Positions 28,431 through 38,428 of a stretch of DNA of 41,666 bases are shown piece by piece. Made by a program: the position numbers and the translations under genes. Numbering within the stretch: the stretch's first letter is position 1; each line of letters opens with the position of its first letter. Location: sequence record NC_027995.1. One strand, 5' to 3'. The DNA is from Escherichia phage vB_EcoM_ECO1230-10. Below the pieces are notes generated by a model, which saw nothing but the letters and a program-made list of their open reading frames with translations, was not told the DNA's origin and searched no databases.

Positions 28431-28500
28431 GTAACCCCCAATAATTATAAATAAAAGTCAATATGGGGATTGTAGCACACAGAATATACGAAAGTAACAA

Positions 28501-28768
28501 GGGACTAACTTGGGACTATCTCAGCAAAAGATAGTCCCACTGTTATGCTATTGATTAACTTAAAGAAAACGCCATTTTCTGGCTGATTTGGGACAAGTGG
28601 GACCAAATTTCCCTATATATACTATTACTCCCCATATATTTATAAATAATGTTTTATAAAAAGATAGTCCCTTATAGTCCCAAATGGTGTTTTCGTTATT
28701 AATATCAATAACTTAACGTGGGACCAGCTCAAAAAAAGATAGTCCCATTTGGGACCATAGATAGTCCC
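28501..28768. repeat. iteron-like cluster of 9-bp motif GATAGTCCC with AT-rich tract
   Basis: GATAGTCCC at 28530, 28663, 28738, 28760; TATAGTCCC 28673; inverted GGGACTATC 28512 and GGGACTAAC 28501; GGGAC(C/A)A x4; AT-rich tract 28611-28662. Confidence 0.7.
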
Positions 28769-28829
28769 AAATCGCATTTGTGTGACAATTACTTACCAGA
28801 AAAAGAGGTTAATATTGCTAAATCAACCA

Positions 28830-28854
28830 AAGAAAAAACCGCCCGAAGGCGGTT
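28830..28854 (-). terminator. intrinsic terminator after AP2-like gene
   Basis: minus sense aaccgcc-ttcg-ggcggtt followed by TTTTTTC. Confidence 0.6.
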
Positions 28855-28859
28855 AGTGT

Positions 28860-30816: not shown

Positions 30817-33120
30817 TCAAAATGGCCGGTCATCATCGTCATTGAATCGCCGGTGGTCAGGATTTGGCACCTTCGGCGGCAGGCTGAACAGGCGGTTGCT
30901 GCCAGACTTCCTGGCTGGCTTGCCAGTGAGTTTTCGAAGCACGCCAGCGCAATGGGTTGTCTGTGCCTTGTTCGGCTTATCGTAGCCTATTTCTTGCAGC
31001 ACCTGGGTTGCTGTACGGTCGGTGTAGGCTGCTGGTCTGTCGCAACCCCACTCGTAACGCATCAGTATCATTTCCTCTACCGGGTCAATCGCTTCGTGTT
31101 CCTTGTTCACTTGTTCCAGCATGGCTTCTTCTTCTGCGTTCATCCACCAGCGTTCGCCTTCGCGGTACAACTGCGCCACTTCTGCCCAAACTTGCTGCAT
31201 ATCAATATCGTGTTCGTAGTTGATGCGTGTTACCGGAATGGTCCACCAGCGAACGTTCCCTGTGTCATCCGCCAGGAAGTGTTTCGGGTTCACTGACGCA
31301 AAAAACACGGTTCTGCGCTGGTAGGTCGATTCAAGCCGGTCGTAAGGTCTGCGGATTTCGTCACGGTCCTGGCTGATGAATGATTTCAGGCGCGCAATGT
31401 CGGATTTGCGAAAAGTTGCATCCAGTTCGCCAAGCTCCACCATCCAGCGGCCAATTGCGCTGCTCACGCTGTCTTTGTTTGCCGGGTCGATTGTTGCCCC
31501 TACCTTAATTAATTCACGCAGTGTAGGCGGAACCAGCGAACGAAACCATGCTGTTTTCCCCAGCGACTGTTCACCCTGTAGCACCAGAACTCCTTTTGAG
31601 TAGAACCCGGTTGGCTGCATTGCTGCGGCAACGGCGGAAATCAACCAGCGGCGAACCATCATCAACACCAGACTGCGGTCAAAACCTTCCGCCGTTTCCA
31701 GTGTGTCACACAGGTCATAAATTCTGCTTACTCCATCCCACGGTTTTGCGGTGATAAATTCAGATGCAGGGTTGTAACGGTTGCTCATGGCAATCAGCTT
31801 TACATATTCAGCACAGGAACCAGACGGCATACCGTTGCGGGCACACAGGCTGACAATTTCAGTCAATGCACTGTTCGCTGATGCGTCGTTTCCGTAATCC
31901 TTTCCGGGGATCGTAACCACCACATCTTTGCTGATTTCGTTGTAACGCGATTTGATGCCGTACTGGTCAAGCAGCCATTCCAGGTTTTCCCACGTGTTAA
32001 GCGGTTTTTGCTGGTGGCTCATGTGCGGGAACATGAACGGGTTTACGCTGGCATCCAGAGGCAGAAAGTTATCATTCACCGGTTCCGGTATCACCGCGTT
32101 AATCTGGTCGCTTACAGCGTTTAAACCTTCCAGCACGTGCAGGTCATTAAAGTCGGTAGGCTTATCGCTAAGGCGCGTAAATTTAGGAACCGCCAGCAGG
32201 CCACCTGTTGTGATTGATGCCTGGCGCGCGTAGTGAACTCCATCATTTTGCTTGCCATCTTCGTGCCACTGGTCATTATCGGCTGCCACAACAATTGTTG
32301 CGCGTCCGAACTGCTGGCGCATCAGCTTGGCTACGGTCGGAACGTTTCCAGCATCGAAAGCGACCACCACGCAGTAACCGGTAGCCATGTGAATTGATGC
32401 GCCGGTGGAATACCCTTCACAGATAACAATAACCGGGTTTGCGCCAGTTGGTTTGTTGCCAATGACGTGGAAGCACCCACGTTTCTGGCCGCCCGGCAGG
32501 TAATCACGGTCACGCCCTAGCTGTGGGTTTTCGTTCTGGAATATGGCTTGCAGGCTGGTGATCTGCCCGTCAATGTTTCTGATTGGCACCAGCAGCGCGC
32601 CATCCTGGTTACGAAAACGACCGATGCGCAGCCCGAATGATTTAACCAGTTTGCGTTTCAGGTATGGGTGTTCATCGCCTTCCAGTTCGGTAGCTGATTC
32701 CCATATGTTGCGCGCCTGCTCTGCTGCCTGCGCCATACGTTCGGCGCGCAGTTGTTGTTCTTTGCGCTCTTCTTCTTCGCGGCGTTGTTTGCGCGCCTGA
32801 ATTTCTTCTGCAGAAATCGGCGTGCGTTCGTTGTCGTTCAGCGAAAAGCCAAATAACTGCGCCTCACCAATCAGGGTGCCAATGCCAATGCCGCCGTGAC
32901 GCTTCACTGATTTCCAGGTGTCGCGTGCGTCTTTGCTGTTGTACTTGTCAGACTGGCGTGACCAGTCATTCCAGACGGTGAAACCGCCGTCGCCTAGTTC
33001 CGATTTGACCGCCATCGCCATGCGCACCCATGTTTCACGGTCGCAACCGGCGTCAATGTAGGAAAGTGCTTCTGCAATTTCCTGTTCGGTCAAATCCTTA
33101 TAGTTTTGTTGTGCACTCAT
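30817..33120 (-). CDS. DNA primase / replicative NTPase (PriCT + TOPRIM + P-loop, P4-alpha/D5-like)
   Basis: TOPRIM VIVICEGYSTGASI and VVAADND; Walker A GEQSLGKT; 767 aa; C-terminus ends DDDDRPF. Confidence 0.85.
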   Translation of the reverse strand: MSAQQNYKDLTEQEIAEALSYIDAGCDRETWVRMAMAVKSELGDGGFTVWNDWSRQSDKYNSKDARDTWKSVKRHGGIGIGTLIGEAQLFGFSLNDNERTPISAEEIQARKQRREEEERKEQQLRAERMAQAAEQARNIWESATELEGDEHPYLKRKLVKSFGLRIGRFRNQDGALLVPIRNIDGQITSLQAIFQNENPQLGRDRDYLPGGQKRGCFHVIGNKPTGANPVIVICEGYSTGASIHMATGYCVVVAFDAGNVPTVAKLMRQQFGRATIVVAADNDQWHEDGKQNDGVHYARQASITTGGLLAVPKFTRLSDKPTDFNDLHVLEGLNAVSDQINAVIPEPVNDNFLPLDASVNPFMFPHMSHQQKPLNTWENLEWLLDQYGIKSRYNEISKDVVVTIPGKDYGNDASANSALTEIVSLCARNGMPSGSCAEYVKLIAMSNRYNPASEFITAKPWDGVSRIYDLCDTLETAEGFDRSLVLMMVRRWLISAVAAAMQPTGFYSKGVLVLQGEQSLGKTAWFRSLVPPTLRELIKVGATIDPANKDSVSSAIGRWMVELGELDATFRKSDIARLKSFISQDRDEIRRPYDRLESTYQRRTVFFASVNPKHFLADDTGNVRWWTIPVTRINYEHDIDMQQVWAEVAQLYREGERWWMNAEEEAMLEQVNKEHEAIDPVEEMILMRYEWGCDRPAAYTDRTATQVLQEIGYDKPNKAQTTHCAGVLRKLTGKPARKSGSNRLFSLPPKVPNPDHRRFNDDDDRPF

Positions 33121-33132
33121 AGAACCCCGATT

Positions 33133-33363
33133 TTATGGCCTGTTAGCGCGCCATATGGCCAGTGCGCGTTGTTCTAGTTCTTCGCGGGCTGTTGCTCCGC
33201 GCCGTTTTTCTATCGCTGCCAGCAGGGTGCGCCGTGCTTCAATGGTTGGCTGATTCAGAACGTATTTGGCTTCGCATTCCAGCAACCATTCCCGGCTATC
33301 GCTCAACACTTCGCGCCCATCGTGCAGCGTCACTGTGGTGGGCTGCCAGGTACAGGCGTTCAC
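33133..33363 (-). CDS. hypothetical protein (76 aa)
   Basis: ORF track; coupled to upstream gene. Confidence 0.5.
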   Translation of the reverse strand: MNACTWQPTTVTLHDGREVLSDSREWLLECEAKYVLNQPTIEARRTLLAAIEKRRGATAREELEQRALAIWRANRP

Positions 33364-34058
33364 GCGACAGCCTCACCGCTTGACGGTTCATTGTCGTTAG
33401 CGTGGCGCAGGTGAGTCGCGTTGGCGTTGAAAACAGCAATGGCGAAGCCCAATGGCGTTGCGCTGCGGATGTTTGCACGCTCTGGACCAGGTGGGCATTT
33501 ATGGATTCTGTCATCTGGCGCGCCTAACGTTTCATCGCGGAACGCTTCCGGCATAACGAAACCGCCACCAGTCCAAAGGCATGTTTTCTTTGTGTAATTG
33601 TCGTTTGCGCAATATCCAGTAAAGTCAGCCGGGTTGAAAGCGTAGTCGGGTTTACGCCACAGGCTGCTAATCTGGCTTACCGGGTTTTCAACGGCCCACG
33701 GCACACCGGCCATCTCGCCAATAATCTGGCACTGCCACACAACGTGCATTGCTTTGAACTGGAAAGCCGGGTCAGCCTCACGTTTCGTGCTAAACCAGCG
33801 AGCACCGCTTACCGCCAAATCAGTGCATGGAGGGAACCCCATAACAAAAACAACGTGACCAGTGGACACGGTGCGGCGCAAAATATCCCACGTAGCTGGA
33901 TGGTCGATAATATGGCCAACGCGGGTGATTGCGCCATCAACGTGAACGCCTTCCGGGTGCTGCGGGTCAACCAGAACGGCTTCATAACCTGCGTCAACCC
34001 ACGGCTTTGCCATTACGCCAGTGATGTCACACAGGCAGATAATAATTCCTTTACTCAT
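33360..34058 (-). CDS. small C5-cytosine-methyltransferase-like protein (minimal, 232 aa)
   Basis: GFPPC (motif IV-like Pro-Cys) and AVENP (motif VI-like ENV) about 44 aa apart; no clear FxGxGG motif I; too short for a canonical Dcm. Confidence 0.4.
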   Translation of the reverse strand: MSKGIIICLCDITGVMAKPWVDAGYEAVLVDPQHPEGVHVDGAITRVGHIIDHPATWDILRRTVSTGHVVFVMGFPPCTDLAVSGARWFSTKREADPAFQFKAMHVVWQCQIIGEMAGVPWAVENPVSQISSLWRKPDYAFNPADFTGYCANDNYTKKTCLWTGGGFVMPEAFRDETLGAPDDRIHKCPPGPERANIRSATPLGFAIAVFNANATHLRHANDNEPSSGEAVA

Positions 34059-34243
34059 AATTTGTTACCCCCGGACAATTTATACTCAAGCAATTCAAGC
34101 TGGTGGGTCGGAATGACTTTCCCGCCCTTACAGCGCCAGATAAGCACCGTTTGTTCAGTGCGGCCAAGTAAACGGCCAACATCGCGGCAGGTTAAGCCAT
34201 GTTTAGCCATAATGTCGTGAAGTCGTTCGGTCCTTTCGTCCAT
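34055..34243 (-). CDS. small HTH DNA-binding protein (Cro/XRE-like)
   Basis: start MDERTERL with GAGG SD; HGLTCRDVGRLLGRTEQTVLIW helix-turn-helix. Confidence 0.5.
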   Translation of the reverse strand: MDERTERLHDIMAKHGLTCRDVGRLLGRTEQTVLIWRCKGGKVIPTHQLELLEYKLSGGNKL

Positions 34244-34285
34244 AGTAATAGCCTCGTAATAACAATGCGCCCATAGTACAGGGCG

Positions 34286-34305
34286 CATTTCCTAAAGTAA
34301 ATATC
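34286..34305 (-). promoter_or_regulatory. conserved intergenic element partial copy C (CATTTCCT..GTAAATATC)
   Basis: same orientation as copies A and B; adjacent to palindrome aatgcgccc/gggcgcatt (34264-34289). Confidence 0.3.
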
Positions 34306-34323
34306 TTTTGAAATAATCTTACG

Positions 34324-34548
34324 TCATCTTGATGATTTCGGCATCACGAAACGGAAACCGGCCTGGTGCTTCATGGCCATTGCGCCTGCCAGGCGTATCA
34401 GTTCAGCGAAAGGGTCTTTGCCGATAGTTGACGTGGTGCGGTACTGTTGCGCCGCGTAGTCAGCCGCGTGCTGCGCTGTGCCAGGTGATGCGCCTTGCTT
34501 CACCAGTTCGGCCATGACTTGTTTTTTGATGAAGTCTACCGGGTTCAT
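34324..34548 (-). CDS. hypothetical small protein (74 aa)
   Basis: ORF track; ATGA coupling with upstream gene. Confidence 0.45.
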   Translation of the reverse strand: MNPVDFIKKQVMAELVKQGASPGTAQHAADYAAQQYRTTSTIGKDPFAELIRLAGAMAMKHQAGFRFVMPKSSR

Positions 34549-34781
34549 GCTGCCGCCCTCCGGTTGCGCTCCTTTCGTGCCTTGCGTCGCATAGCTGCAA
34601 TGCCGGTGAAGCGTGAACGGCGTGGCCCTGGCTTCGGGTAATCCAGTACCACTTGCATTGACCGCACCTTTGGACGCCAGCCAGCACGCACCAACGCCAT
34701 TTGAAAACCCAGGCTGATTTCCCTGGCTGATAACTTCCAGGCGTCAACCAGCCGCTGCATTGCCACTTTGAAAATATTCAT
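34545..34781 (-). CDS. hypothetical small basic protein (78 aa)
   Basis: ORF track; Arg/Lys-rich C-terminus; ATGA coupling. Confidence 0.45.
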   Translation of the reverse strand: MNIFKVAMQRLVDAWKLSAREISLGFQMALVRAGWRPKVRSMQVVLDYPKPGPRRSRFTGIAAMRRKARKERNRRAAA

Positions 34782-34939
34782 TCAACACCCCACGTTTGTT
34801 TCAGGTTTTCCACTTCAAGCGCCGTTAACATGCCGTAACGGTTCAGATTCCACATTGCCGTTTTTGCCGCCAGGAACGTGATGTGGTTCCTGGTCACCAG
34901 TGCTTCTGCAAACAGTCTGCGAATGCTTTCGATTGTCAT
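34778..34939 (-). CDS. hypothetical small protein (53 aa), alternative to the track's 68-aa ORF
   Basis: MTIESIRRLFAEALVTRNHITFLAAKTAMWNLNRYGMLTALEVENLKQTWGVE; globular-looking; stop overlaps next ATG (ATGA); under 60 aa so absent from track. Confidence 0.35.
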   Translation of the reverse strand: MTIESIRRLFAEALVTRNHITFLAAKTAMWNLNRYGMLTALEVENLKQTWGVE

Positions 34940-35017
34940 CATGGTTTAGCCACTCCATCATTGATCGTCCGGTATCTACGCTGTAGCGCAGTGCGTCGGA
35001 TGCTATCTGTTTTATGC

Positions 35018-35431
35018 TCATTTGCCGAACACCAGTTTTTCAGCGTCAGCCACTGACCGCACAACACCGGCGCGGCCACCATCAGCATTCACCACACTAA
35101 TGAACGTTTTTTGCAGCGGTGACGGCTTGCCATTTTCGTCCTTAACTTCTGGACCAATGAAAATCGCCACCTTTTGGCCAACCATGTCAGCGGTTATTTC
35201 TTCAACCACATAACCAAACAGGTCGGTGAATCCTGGTGGCAACCCGGTGTCAAACGGCCTTGCGTTCCGCAGCAGGACATCACGCGGCCCCATAACAACC
35301 GGCATCTTGCGCGGCACCTTCACCACGTCATTACTGGCCCACGCTTTTCCTACGTTGGCGCGAAACAGTTTGCATCGCCCAGCCAGTGCGTTGCGGATTT
35401 CGTTCTGTATCGCGTGCTCTTTGTTAGCCAT
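35018..35431 (-). CDS. VRR-NUC domain nuclease
   Basis: start MANKEH with GGTGGGGG SD; LFRANVGKAW then PGFTDL...IFIGPEVK (PD-(D/E)xK). Confidence 0.6.
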   Translation of the reverse strand: MANKEHAIQNEIRNALAGRCKLFRANVGKAWASNDVVKVPRKMPVVMGPRDVLLRNARPFDTGLPPGFTDLFGYVVEEITADMVGQKVAIFIGPEVKDENGKPSPLQKTFISVVNADGGRAGVVRSVADAEKLVFGK

Positions 35432-35531
35432 AGATAACCCCCACCAGGACAGCACAGGCAGCCAGCACCACCAGCAGCAAGAACAATTCATCTTTCAGCA
35501 TCGCCAGGATGCCACGCAGAAACAGTTTCAT
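35424..35531 (-). CDS. 35-aa hydrophobic membrane peptide
   Basis: MKLFLRGILAMLKDELFLLLVVLAACAVLVGVIYG; ATGA-coupled on both sides; not in ORF track. Confidence 0.35.
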   Translation of the reverse strand: MKLFLRGILAMLKDELFLLLVVLAACAVLVGVIYG

Positions 35532-35920
35532 TTGACGGCCCCTGGATATTCACCAGAATTGCAGCGCATCCACACACGCAGGCCAATTTGTTCAGGTCGA
35601 AGGCTTGCCGATTGTGGCCAGAACACCTGGCGCGCCACCCAAATGATGCGGTTCTGGTTGTTGTTGGCCAGCAGGGTGACCACGCCCTGTTCGCCTGCGC
35701 CTTTGTCGCGCAGTTCAGCGATTTTGACGGCGATTTTTTGCAGTTCCAGGCAGTAGTAAACCTGGTCAACGTCCTGCAATTCCGGCTGTGGTGCCGGTTC
35801 CTGTTCTTCCGTCACCTGGCAGTTGTCCTTTGCCGGGTCCATGCCTGGCAGGCATTCGCGCGCCTGTGCTGCTGCGCTGGTGGCCGCCAGGAGGAAAGCG
35901 GCGATGATAAGTTTTTTCAT
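35528..35920 (-). CDS. secreted/periplasmic protein with Sec signal peptide
   Basis: ATG at 35920 with AGGTGA SD; MKKLIIAAFLLAATSAAAQA signal; several Cys. Confidence 0.6.
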   Translation of the reverse strand: MKKLIIAAFLLAATSAAAQARECLPGMDPAKDNCQVTEEQEPAPQPELQDVDQVYYCLELQKIAVKIAELRDKGAGEQGVVTLLANNNQNRIIWVARQVFWPQSASLRPEQIGLRVWMRCNSGEYPGAVK

Positions 35921-35962
35921 GGTGTCACCTGTGAGAACTGCCCGGCGCACCGGGCATGGTTG

Positions 35963-36631
35963 TTATTTGCCGGTCGGAATCCCACACAGCGCGTTCAGGT
36001 CAGCGACTGACAGCGCAATGCCAGTGCATGGCTGTTTAGCAATCGGCGTAGTTTCTGGAATCAGTTCTTTTGCATCTGGCCATGCTTCCAGGAGTTTTTC
36101 CACAGTTGTGAACCCTGAAATTGTCGCTTTCAGTGTTGATTTAAGCGTGTTGTATTCTTCACGCAGTTGCGCAGCTTCCTGGTCGATAGCGTCCAGTTCT
36201 TCGCGCCATTTCGGATCGCATACGATGAAATCTTTTTCGCAGGTATGCGGTGAATATTTTTTCTCGTCGTATTCAGCCACCGATTCCTTGAATAGCGGTT
36301 CATATCGTGCATCGGTGTTAACGCCGTTGCGATAAACGTAACGAGACTGGCCGGATAAATTAACGTCTAAACGGTATTGGCTACCATCAAATTCTACTCG
36401 CACATAGCTAGCGCCTTCGTGCTTAACCTCTTTTGCAAGTTTCTCAACCTGCTCCTTGATTTCTGCCAGTCGTTCATCAGTCAGACCGTATTCACCCAGG
36501 ATAAATAGGCGCAGACGTTCAGCAAAATCAGCGCGTTTCTGAACGATAGCCAAATCACGGCCTGCAAAGTCTTTGGTTTTGATTGCGTTGGCAATGATGC
36601 CATCACGGATTGCAGCGGTTAAACGTGCCAT
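35963..36631 (-). CDS. hypothetical protein (222 aa)
   Basis: start MARLTAAI with AAGAGGAAA SD; the track's longer ORF starts at the ATG inside element A. Confidence 0.6.
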   Translation of the reverse strand: MARLTAAIRDGIIANAIKTKDFAGRDLAIVQKRADFAERLRLFILGEYGLTDERLAEIKEQVEKLAKEVKHEGASYVRVEFDGSQYRLDVNLSGQSRYVYRNGVNTDARYEPLFKESVAEYDEKKYSPHTCEKDFIVCDPKWREELDAIDQEAAQLREEYNTLKSTLKATISGFTTVEKLLEAWPDAKELIPETTPIAKQPCTGIALSVADLNALCGIPTGK

Positions 36632-36675
36632 TTTGGTGTTTCCTCTTTTGTTGTTGAGCACCTGTGTGCCGGTGA

Positions 36676-36731
36676 AATAACTATACATTTCCTTTGGTAA
36701 ATATCGCCAATCGGTTGTACCTATTAATAAA
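36676..36731 (-). promoter_or_regulatory. conserved intergenic element copy A (downstream of helicase)
   Basis: homologous to 30737-30790; contains AGGAAATG. Confidence 0.4.
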
Positions 36732-36735
36732 CACG

Positions 36736-38154
36736 CTATTTACGTTTAAATCTTCTTCCGCCCATCTTCGCTATGGCCCAACCTGATGGGTTCGGCAGCC
36801 CTCGTTTCATCGCCAGGGCGGTCAGTGCGCCAATGTCTTTGCACGCATCTTCTTCGCGCCTCATCTTGGCGCGCAGACTTTCTTTGGCGCGTTCGTCCAT
36901 TTCGCGCAGTTCACCTTCCGCCACTTCAATTTCTTTGGCTTCGGCCTGTAGTTCCTTCTGGCAGTGCGGGCACTTCGGCGGCAGCGGTCTTCGGATGGCG
37001 TTGAAACAGCCTTTGCAGATGACTGGCGGCGGTGGTCCACCAGCGCTGCTGGATTTGCTGCCGCTATCATCGCCAGCCAGTGACCATTCCCGTTCATCAT
37101 CGGGGAAGCCATGACGCAGCGCATTGCCAGCGTGGTCCAGGATGATGGCGGTTTTTCCTTTGGACGGTCGCAACACGCGCCCATCTTTCTGTAACACCAG
37201 CGACAATGATTGTGTGGGCTGCGCGTCAATCAGGCAGTCAATCGTCACGTCAGTCTGCGCGATGGCTGACAGGTCGAAACCTTCACCGAACAGGGACACG
37301 TTGAAAATCACATCCAGGTTATCGTTGGCGTAGTCCTGAATGATGCGCTTGCGTTCCGCCTTATCGGTGCCGCCGTCCAGGTGTGCGGCTCGGATGCCTG
37401 AATCAATGAATGCCTGCGTTAAATGGCGGCTGTGTGCGATGTTTACCGCAAAGCCAACCGTTTTCATGCCTTTGGCGTATTTCAGCCAGTGGCTGATGAT
37501 GTTGCCGGTTAGTTTCGGTTTATCCATCTTCTCGGCGGTTTCGCCTTTTGAGAAATCGCCCATCTGCTTGCGTACACCCTTCATGTCAGGGATGTCCGGG
37601 CAGAACATGCGATAATCAGACAGGTGGCCGTTATCCATCAGCCAGCGCACAGATGGCCCCAACACGATGTCATCAAAGTGGTCATCCAGGCCGGTGCCGT
37701 CCAGGCGCTTTGGCGTGGCTGACAGGCCGATGACATACGCGCCATTCTCAAACAGCCAGGCGTTGACGCGTGCCCAACCAGCCGCGCCACAGTGGTGCGC
37801 TTCGTCCATGATTGCCAGTTTAGGGGCGGGCAGGGTGTGCAGGCGGTTTTTCAGGGTGTCGATGCTGCACACCTGCACCCCGGCGCGCAGGTTCATGGGA
37901 TAGCCTGCGGCAATAAAGCCGTGATCAATGCCGAACTTGCGAAACGTCAGGCTGGTTTGCAGCACCAGTTCTGCGCGGTGGCAAATAAACCACACCTGCT
38001 GCCCTTTTGACGATGCTTCCCCAGCCATGAATGACGCCAGCGCAGTTTTCCCCGCGCCTGTTGGTGCCTGCAATAACACGCGCCGGTTGCGCCGCATACA
38101 AAGGCGCGCCCTATTGATAATGTCGGATTGATAGTCCCTAAGTATTACGCCCAT
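36736..38154 (-). CDS. DEAH-box superfamily-2 helicase with C-terminal zinc ribbon
   Basis: Walker A APTGAGKT; MDEAHH box; CKGC...CPHC; first gene of minus-strand early operon. Confidence 0.85.
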   Translation of the reverse strand: MGVILRDYQSDIINRARLCMRRNRRVLLQAPTGAGKTALASFMAGEASSKGQQVWFICHRAELVLQTSLTFRKFGIDHGFIAAGYPMNLRAGVQVCSIDTLKNRLHTLPAPKLAIMDEAHHCGAAGWARVNAWLFENGAYVIGLSATPKRLDGTGLDDHFDDIVLGPSVRWLMDNGHLSDYRMFCPDIPDMKGVRKQMGDFSKGETAEKMDKPKLTGNIISHWLKYAKGMKTVGFAVNIAHSRHLTQAFIDSGIRAAHLDGGTDKAERKRIIQDYANDNLDVIFNVSLFGEGFDLSAIAQTDVTIDCLIDAQPTQSLSLVLQKDGRVLRPSKGKTAIILDHAGNALRHGFPDDEREWSLAGDDSGSKSSSAGGPPPPVICKGCFNAIRRPLPPKCPHCQKELQAEAKEIEVAEGELREMDERAKESLRAKMRREEDACKDIGALTALAMKRGLPNPSGWAIAKMGGRRFKRK

Positions 38155-38348
38155 AATTATTATTCATCGCTTATCATTCAAAGTATTCGCAATTGTATGT
38201 TACTGCGTTGCTTCTGTGCAACCGCAAGTATTCGTTATTGATGTTCAGCAAAACGTGATCTGCAAAAAAAAAGCATGGCAGATGTACAGCTAAGGTTTGT
38301 TGATTAGGCCTCATGACGCCAATTAAAACCCTGTTATCGACAAAGAAG

Positions 38349-38378
38349 TTGACAGTATAACAGCACGTAAGTCATAAT
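38349..38378 (+). promoter_or_regulatory. sigma70-like promoter for plus-strand early operon
   Basis: TTGACA (38349-38354), 18-nt spacer, CATAAT (38373-38378); about 45 nt upstream of exonuclease ATG with GAGGGG SD. Confidence 0.45.
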
Positions 38379-38428
38379 TCACCGCAGTTAATCGGAAGTC
38401 ATGTTAAATAATCGTTGCGAGGGGCAAT

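Follow-up and report, generated by a model that had tools for sequence, protein, structure and literature searches.

Aca proteins follow the same logic as other autoregulated HTH repressors, with a palindromic operator over their own -10, and generic HTH Pfam domains are common to the Aca families. The nin region of phage lambda is a run of small ORFs, mostly without obvious function, amid the replication and recombination genes of the early operon. In acr-aca operons, Aca binds an inverted repeat that forms part of the core promoter ahead of the first acr gene, no more than ~150 bp from the start of this gene, and the structures of Aca1 and Aca2 have been solved (7FA3 and 7B5J) (PMC9410906).

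The locus described here belongs to Escherichia phage vB_EcoM_ECO1230-10 (NC_027995.1), of which a stretch of 41,666 nucleotides was analyzed (hereafter, the window). A preliminary description of this DNA had noted three small, translationally coupled genes of 53, 78, and 74 aa followed by a small HTH gene, and had likened this layout to that of Acr/Aca or toxin-antitoxin (TA) operons. The layout, the ATGA junctions and the lengths of 78 and 74 aa hold, but the first gene encodes 54 aa. We refer to the three genes as g54, g78, and g74 (the trio). The span given at the time (34324-35017) includes these small genes but leaves both the HTH gene and the palindrome outside. From the comparison with related phages, we consider it probable that two transcription units of the Jilinvirus-type replication module meet at this locus, and that the HTH protein represses its own primase operon via the palindrome.

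Organization of the locus

The genes are organized on the minus strand and follow each other, in the direction of transcription, as helicase, Nmad5-domain protein, 140-aa ORF, VRR-NUC nuclease, a 75-nt spacer, g54, g78, g74, an 80-nt spacer, HTH, methyltransferase, DUF7696, and primase. The features are:

36736-38154, minus strand: helicase gene
35963-36688, minus strand: Nmad5-domain protein gene
35018-35431, minus strand: VRR-NUC nuclease gene, the last recognizable gene ahead of the small-gene block
34943-35017, minus strand: 75-nt spacer between the VRR-NUC gene and g54
34778-34942, minus strand: g54, a conserved ORFan of 54 aa (phrog_19635)
34545-34781, minus strand: g78, a very basic ORFan of 78 aa (phrog_21931)
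34324-34548, minus strand: g74, an ORFan of 74 aa, predicted three-helix bundle (phrog_4439)
34296-34301, minus strand: -35-like hexamer TTTACT of the proposed promoter of the HTH/primase operon
34264-34289: palindrome AATGCGCCC-N8-GGGCGCATT, proposed operator of the HTH protein, with arms at 34264-34272 and 34281-34289
34273-34278, minus strand: -10-like hexamer TACTAT, within the 8-nt palindrome center
34055-34243, minus strand: HTH gene of 62 aa, proposed to open the primase operon and to encode an autorepressor
33360-34058, minus strand: DNA methyltransferase gene, an optional insert (phrog_757)
33133-33363, minus strand: DUF7696 gene (Pfam DUF7696, E 7e-17)
30817-33120, minus strand: primase gene, with PriCT_2, Toprim, and VapE-like domains in the copies of relatives

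Overlaps of 4 nt (ATGA) are present at the g54/g78, g78/g74, HTH/methyltransferase, and methyltransferase/DUF7696 junctions, and the HTH-led operon has ATGA or short junctions throughout. The VRR-NUC gene matches Pfam VRR_NUC slightly under the gathering score (E 7.8e-5), as well as phrog_93 and phrog_5702 (endonuclease / Holliday junction resolvase). Its product is annotated in relatives as a protein of 136-137 aa starting with MANKEH.

Reading frames and gene starts

Two overlapping frames compete for the first small gene. The preliminary description had preferred the frame of g54 to a 68-aa ORF (34815-35021), and the PHROG match together with purifying selection settles the question in the same sense. 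Specifically, g54 matches phrog_19635 from end to end (E 3e-40), whereas no PHROG match was found for the 68-aa ORF, and the stretch common to both ORFs has a pN/pS of 0.34 in the g54 frame vs 1.37 in the 68-aa frame. Distant homologues of g54 start with MW and only the first ATG is conserved; g54 therefore starts at this first ATG, giving a protein of 54 aa. A GGAG is located 10 nt upstream of the start codon.

The 75-nt spacer preceding g54 is at the same time codons 1-25 of the 68-aa ORF, the ATG of which overlaps the VRR-NUC stop codon (ATGA). In the frame of this ORF, no stop codon occurs in 16 distinct relatives, while the remaining frames contain 57 and 8, and the indels among relatives measure 12 and 18 nt. 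The spacer's pN/pS is 0.57 in the 68-aa frame vs 0.63 in another frame, with 0.17 for a true-coding control. The spacer is missing from MQ-4-like phages, and the consensus scan made no minus-strand promoter call in the 75 nt upstream of g54. It possibly represents a short upstream ORF. A frameshift that would join the N-terminus of the 68-aa ORF to g54 was considered and rejected, the junction having no conserved slippery sequence. A 95-aa ORF at 34460-34747 was taken as spurious.

For the HTH gene, a GAGG lies 8 nt upstream of the ATG of the 62-aa version. Some GenBank records contain a 77-aa version, which we discarded: its ATG falls inside a palindrome arm and it misfits the conserved N-terminus M[DN]E[RK]T. 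Pooled pN/pS values amount to 0.48 (g54), 0.49 (g78), 0.28 (g74), and 0.44 (HTH). The genes g54, g78, and g74 are real, lineage-restricted ORFans under purifying selection. For Jilinvirus-type phages, the gene starts are fixed such that the first small gene encodes 54 aa and the HTH gene 62 aa instead of 77 aa.

Relatives and synteny

The region has 83-91% DNA identity to the Jilinvirus-type enterobacterial myophages ep3, ECOO78, HeidiAbel/Bas97, PT1, Alux-21, KA2-1, and ET-SD-TH, and 77% to Enterobacter phage Arya. Serratia phage MQ-4 and some metagenomic contigs are farther relatives with an equal layout; a scan of the JGI metagenomes returned only three loci. In ep3, ECOO78, Arya, HeidiAbel, and KA2-1, the four small genes are annotated as three hypothetical proteins and a ‘transcriptional repressor’.

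All enterobacterial-clade loci that span the region consist of VRR-NUC, g54, g78, zero to three extra ORFs, g74, the spacer, HTH, an optional methyltransferase, DUF7696, and primase. The methyltransferase gene is found in the window, KA2-1, ET-SD-TH, and locus L033, and is missing from ep3, Bas97, PT1, Arya, and MQ-4. The genes g54, g78, g74, and HTH occur in the same order in every complete enterobacterial-clade locus examined, unlike the accessory, patchy distribution expected of acr genes. In MQ-4 and two further loci (L010 and L012), g54 starts 1-2 nt past the VRR-NUC stop codon, indicating that the trio lacks a separate promoter and is part of the upstream operon.

The g78/g74 junction is a hotspot for inserted accessory genes. 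We found five different contents at this site: most phages have an empty junction, ECOO78 encodes a 99-aa ORF and L036 a 48-aa ORF, while larger inserts comprise 72-aa and 79-aa ORFs in L010, and 81-aa, 125-aa (HTH), and 79-aa ORFs in both MQ-4 and L012. None of the inserted ORFs has a known function.

A scan of IMG/VR with the HTH profile revealed a distant clade, in which the HTH protein is 44-61% identical. These phages are missing g54, g78, and g74, their interval between VRR-NUC and HTH is occupied by unrelated genes, and primase directly follows HTH. The HTH gene is thus always located just upstream of the primase operon, the distant clade included. We should note that an interval filled with unrelated genes in distant relatives is how host-specific takeover or anti-defense genes behave. 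As for prophage copies, the GTDB representative genomes yielded none of g74, and complete E. coli genomes none of the cassette.

The HTH protein

The last of the four small genes had been described as a small HTH gene, and this assignment is confirmed at the family level. The protein itself matches Pfam HTH_23 under the gathering score (E 6e-4). In its family, HTH_23 is matched by 12 of 14 members (best E 7e-6), HTH_31 by six, and HTH_26 by four. In addition, the first 60 positions match phrog_14341, a ‘transcriptional repressor’ (E 8e-17). No significant sequence match to solved regulators was obtained among the PDB sequences, and no Aca chain was retrieved from them at E ≤ 10 with either the protein or its family profile. 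The very weak PDB matches of the profile include the XRE-type antitoxin MbcA (E ~1), and a single weak PADLOC match (PDC-M64C, E 0.0019) was recorded.

The palindrome and the predicted promoter

The palindrome upstream of the HTH gene has the perfect 9-bp arms reported previously, but the loop between them measures 8 nt, not 9 nt. The window contains 12 perfect inverted repeats (~8 distinct) with arms of 9 bp or more and a loop of 3-12 nt, vs a mean of 2.2 in Markov shuffles; consequently, conservation outweighs the chance argument for this palindrome. Its half-site has no other exact copy in the window, consistent with a regulator dedicated to its own promoter.

Throughout the enterobacterial clade, a -10-like hexamer occurs as TACTAT, TATTAT, TATGAT, TATCAT, or TATAGT, with T1, A2, and T6 unchanged and the middle positions varying. 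These three are the key positions of the sigma-70 -10 element. A -35-like hexamer (TTTACT, TTTACA, or TTTAAA) is located 17-18 nt upstream of it. The window's own pair, TTTACT and TACTAT, agrees with the consensus at 8 of 12 positions (weak by this measure) and was not reported by the consensus scan. In the distant clade, the -35 is TTCACA and the -10 is TACAAT or TAAAAT. At least six of its loci (L022, L023, and L025-L028) have a promoter of the TTCACA-N17/18-TACAAT type ahead of HTH, and several of them have GC-rich inverted repeats, often imperfect, on either side of the -10.

The arms occur in the variants AATGCGCCC, AATGCGCCT, AATGCGCCG, and AATGGTCCT (CCC, CCT, CCG, and GGTCCT types, respectively, the last being that of Arya), and perfect complementarity is kept in each of them. 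Recognition helices and arms pair one-to-one, as TEQTV[LM]IW with CCC, SEQTVIIW with CCT, SDQTVRIW with CCG, and TVSTVRVW with GGTCCT, a link made up of only four classes that are phylogenetically non-independent. The HTH protein of L010, although only 58% identical to that of the window, shares its recognition helix with the latter, and the arms of the two loci are identical as well. The dyad thus overlaps the predicted core promoter of the HTH gene, is conserved and covaries with the protein, four arm variants going with four helix variants. The earlier proposal of a link between the HTH protein and the palindrome is supported by this comparison, since the arms sit on a conserved promoter and their variants track the recognition helix. 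From these patterns, we infer both promoter activity and binding of the HTH protein.

The palindrome could instead be an RNA element only, i.e., an intrinsic terminator or a stabilizing 3' hairpin that ends the early operon, with the promoter-like hexamers being incidental; we regard this as unlikely, although it is the likeliest of the alternatives. As RNA, the palindrome is predicted to form a stable hairpin with a 9-bp GC-rich stem and a weak U-rich tail, and the spacer in front of HTH folds at -19.8 kcal/mol (z -2.6). A T-rich tail is present in all enterobacterial-clade variants, with GTTTTTTA in L010 being a textbook terminator tail. The compensated arm changes together with this tail allow a terminator role, alone or in addition. 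However, the window's tail has only four T in eight positions (five to six in relatives) and the palindrome was not called by the terminator scan. Its loop of 8-9 nt is longer than the 4-6 nt loop of a clear terminator-like hairpin of the window, such as the one with a T-run at 892-915. A hairpin alone also leaves unexplained why T1, A2, and T6 of the loop are fixed while other positions vary, and why the -35-like hexamer is held at 17-18 nt. Moreover, the distant-clade loci keep the promoter and the inverted repeat but are missing the T tail. No Rfam match was found over 33000-36000. We should add that an RNA hairpin or a terminator would account for compensated changes in the arms just as well.

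A probable junction of two transcription units

In the regulatory reading that we favor, the first unit would comprise helicase, Nmad5, VRR-NUC, g54, g78, and g74, with the trio as the coupled tail of an early leftward operon. The second unit would comprise HTH, the optional methyltransferase, DUF7696, and primase, and would be read from its own sigma-70-type promoter. The palindrome would embrace the -10 of this promoter, serving as operator for an HTH dimer that represses its own operon. On read-through transcripts, the RNA hairpin with its U-rich tail may additionally weaken transcription from the upstream operon.

Most likely, the HTH protein controls the primase operon as an autoregulator and does not serve the upstream genes as an Aca, because distant phages keep the promoter, HTH, and primase without the trio. 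For the same reason, the conserved unit is the promoter, inverted repeat, HTH, and primase rather than small genes plus HTH.

The small proteins g54, g78, and g74

No member of the trio has a match in Pfam, NCBIfam, or PADLOC, and nothing meaningful was found among the PDB sequences, where the profile matches (haemoglobin and de novo repeat proteins, E 0.005-2) are due to chance. Neither anti-defense nor toxin nor replication homology was thus detected in these four collections. Comparison by structure and family, proposed in the preliminary description as the way to place these proteins, did not assign the trio to anti-defense, replication, or regulation in Pfam, NCBIfam, PADLOC, the PDB, or the fold search with g74. 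Homologues were searched with a word index over 5.8 billion proteins and with an exhaustive profile search over 1.84 billion representatives, and in neither set were any found outside the same phage lineage. The homologue clusters number 31 for g54, 77 for g78, and 20 for g74, all without a Pfam domain and on contigs of ~45 kb or less, a size typical of phage genomes. In the exhaustive profile search, g78 had only six matches at E ≤ 0.001, including one or more spurious repetitive sequences. There is nothing positive that ties the trio to replication or recombination.

The g78 protein matches phrog_21931 over its full length (E 2e-49) and is composed of two dissimilar halves. In the alignment, the N-terminal half is variable and mosaic, with at least five unrelated sequence types, while the C-terminal motif VRSMQVVLDYPKPGPRRSRFTGIAAMRRxARxxRNRR is nearly invariant and terminates in an arginine-rich helix. 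This helix may resemble the arginine-rich motifs of lambdoid N proteins, a likeness that we set aside as a basis for any claim. The AF2 model, which is of low confidence (mean pLDDT 67.5, pTM 0.27), contains helices at residues 2-32 and 57-77 separated by an unstructured part (33-56). The C-terminal half has a pS of 0.37 and a pN/pS of 0.31; since synonymous sites vary, the constraint on the motif acts on the protein and not on an overlapping DNA or RNA element. The arginine-rich helix at the C-terminus, together with a motif that is invariant despite being disordered, suggests that g78 docks on nucleic acid or on a conserved partner.

The g74 protein, a full-length match to phrog_4439, is predicted to form a three-helix bundle (pLDDT 85) with a conserved extended tail, FRFVxPK. 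Fold searches with it retrieved only generic bundles and unnamed phage proteins.

Our best guess is that the trio encodes clade-specific early accessory or adaptor proteins, with a status like that of the nin-region genes of lambda, and not Acr proteins. A more far-reaching and rather doubtful idea is that the g54-g74 block forms an early host-takeover or anti-defense locus, in which the invariant docking motif and the exchanged N-terminal helix of g78 would target a variable host factor, and in which the g78/g74 junction would be a swap hotspot for counter-defense genes. If true, this poorly studied group of myophages would offer several new inhibitor families without known relatives. The mosaicism of the N-terminal half of g78 and the variable g78/g74 junction also fit an arms-race locus.

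Improbable, in our view, is the narrower reading in which g54, g78, and g74 inhibit host defense (CRISPR-Cas or other) with the HTH protein as their Aca-like repressor, as had first been suggested by the layout. The trio does consist of small early ORFans without homologues beyond the lineage, followed by a small HTH gene. Their interval holds other genes in distant relatives, variable genes pile up at the g78/g74 junction, and the N-terminal half of g78 is mosaic. A conserved promoter with an inverted repeat is, however, seen only at 34264-34301, between g74 and HTH, and hence downstream of the candidate genes and not upstream of them as in acr-aca operons (PMC9410906). The trio adjoins VRR-NUC in MQ-4-like phages without a promoter of its own, is core to the clade in a fixed order, and is missing where the HTH gene stays with its conserved partner, primase; in addition, the HTH profile retrieved no Aca chain. 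Phage HeidiAbel, which carries the same cassette with proteins 91-97% identical to those of the window, is reported to be very sensitive to restriction-modification systems and to have no dedicated protection (PMC11990801). This sensitivity argues against an anti-restriction role and is silent on CRISPR-Cas.

Even less probable is that the palindrome and its AT-rich flank form a replication origin or a loading site for primase/helicase. The palindrome is indeed located immediately upstream of the primase operon in the replication module, in a local GC dip (to 0.455), but neither iterons nor repeated half-sites were found, the GC skew does not shift at this position, and the conservation pattern is that of -35 and -10 hexamers at a fixed spacing. 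Finally, a TA-like module with the HTH protein as antitoxin/autorepressor and one of the small proteins as toxin, the other suggestion drawn from the layout, can practically be dismissed: a small HTH gene with a palindrome at its predicted own promoter and the very weak profile match to MbcA speak for it, but the recognizable toxin beside the antitoxin in one autoregulated bicistron that marks type II systems is not seen, the trio having no toxin or defense-family match in Pfam, NCBIfam, or PADLOC (which leaves this reading unsupported) and the HTH protein only its weak PADLOC match, the candidate toxins are separated from HTH by the operator, HTH is instead coupled to methyltransferase, DUF7696, and primase, and the cassette was found neither in the GTDB representative genomes nor in complete E. 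coli genomes.

Significance

The locus is most likely an ordinary regulatory junction with three conserved ORFans. It illustrates that small genes followed by an HTH gene are insufficient to call an acr-aca operon; the position of the promoter and operator and the long-term neighbor of the HTH gene decide. For Jilinvirus-type phages, a likely internal promoter and operator of the primase operon has been identified. Functions in host interaction are best sought at the g78/g74 hotspot and in the unusual g78 protein, and HeidiAbel (Bas97) from the BASEL collection, with the same cassette, provides a usable experimental system.

Comparison with known systems

The closest entries for the small proteins are PHROG 19635, 21931, and 4439, which match g54, g78, and g74 over their full length and are families without functional information. 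In genomic position, and in this respect only, the trio resembles the nin region of lambda: both contain short, tightly packed, translationally coupled early ORFs beside replication genes and a Holliday-junction nuclease.

The locus shares with acr-aca operons several small genes followed by a small HTH gene, and an inverted repeat in a core promoter (PMC9410906). It differs from them in that the promoter and inverted repeat come after the small genes, that the trio goes with VRR-NUC and is core to the clade, and that HTH is linked to primase across clades.

Compared to autoregulated repressors of the Cro/XRE type, the operon encodes a primase instead of lysis-lysogeny or acr genes, and the Pfam matches of the HTH protein remain under the gathering score. 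It is otherwise similar to them, with an HTH protein of ~60 aa and a single dyad within a predicted core promoter of the sigma-70 type directly upstream of its own gene, and, as in those repressors, the half-sites and the recognition helix vary together.

Small genes inserted between g78 and g74

The junction between g78 and g74, two of the three small minus-strand genes downstream of the VRR-NUC nuclease gene, is an insertion hotspot (window 34545-34548). Relatives carry zero, one, two or three extra small genes at exactly this junction: a 99-aa ORF (ECOO78), a 48-aa ORF (locus L036), a 72-aa and a 79-aa ORF (L010), or an 81-aa, a 125-aa (HTH) and a 79-aa ORF (MQ-4 and L012). One inserted ORF (phrog_1081) contains the zinc-ribbon-like motif YFTGKPCxNGH. 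Insert coordinates in related loci are:

L008, 3467-3766: g78/g74 junction insert
L036, 3222-3368: g78/g74 junction insert
L010, 5234-5688: g78/g74 junction insert
L009, 4472-5311: g78/g74 junction insert

Methyltransferase insert and variation of the HTH gene

Another insert lies beyond the gene of the 62-aa HTH protein, a putative autorepressor:

33360-34058, minus strand: DNA methyltransferase of 232 aa (phrog_757), between the HTH gene and DUF7696

This protein has no Pfam match. The insert is shared by the window, KA2-1, ET-SD-TH and L033, and is missing from ep3, Bas97, PT1, Arya and MQ-4. The C-terminus of the HTH protein changes together with it (LEYKLSGGNKL with the insert versus LELKLNAQAAQ without), and the recombination joint is therefore placed within the HTH gene. 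The putative HTH-controlled promoter would then also drive the methyltransferase as a self-methylating anti-restriction gene. In some distant relatives (IMG/VR contigs L017-L020 and L024, at about 2300-2692), the HTH is duplicated in tandem or takes the form of a fused protein of about 130 aa with two GRSExTVRxW modules, and the primase gene follows directly downstream.

The stretch between VRR-NUC and g54

The 75 nt separating VRR-NUC from g54, the remaining gene of the trio, appear ‘intergenic’ but are open in one frame:

34943-35021, minus strand: open reading stretch, same frame as the 68-aa ORF that overlaps g54

This frame contains no stop in 16 of 16 distinct relatives, while the other two contain 57 and 8 stops in the same set. 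The VRR-NUC stop overlaps the start codon of the 68-aa ORF (as ATGA or GTGA), and the indels measure 12 and 18 nt. Translation would give a peptide of about 25 aa (MSIKxIAxDALRYSxETGxSMME). MQ-4-like phages lack the stretch. The contrast between frames is weak (pN/pS of 0.57 in the 68-aa ORF frame versus 0.63 in another), so the stretch could be either a short ORF for translational coupling or only a spacer under constraint.

Other inverted repeats

Among the window's other perfect inverted repeats are:

28511-28539: TGGGACTATCT-N7-AGATAGTCCCA
28747-28772: ATTTGGGAC-N8-GTCCCAAAT
34870-34893: CCAGGAAC-N8-GTTCCTGG, within the g54 coding sequence

The first two have the core TGGGAC in common, lie in a 430-bp stretch (28431-28859) containing no ORF of at least 90 aa, and may be operators for a different regulator. 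The third, kept in most Jilinvirus relatives and broken in KA2-1, may be a mere by-product of the conserved peptide TRNHITFLA.

Early-region neighbors

The early region contains a gene located between those of the helicase and VRR-NUC:

35963-36688, minus strand: 241-aa early gene with an Nmad5 domain (Pfam, E-value 8e-38)

Nmad5 is nucleotide modification associated domain 5; some relatives carry other ORFs in place of this gene. The helicase and exonuclease VIII genes are only 274 bp apart (38155-38428), with a low GC content (0.39) and divergent promoter-like sites. Arya, MQ-4, L010 and L012 encode a cI-like repressor (HTH and Peptidase_S24) at this position, as does HeidiAbel according to PMC11990801. 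This repressor is absent from 38155-38428 in the window and also from ep3, and its absence in the window fits the loss of the lysogeny module described in PMC11990801.
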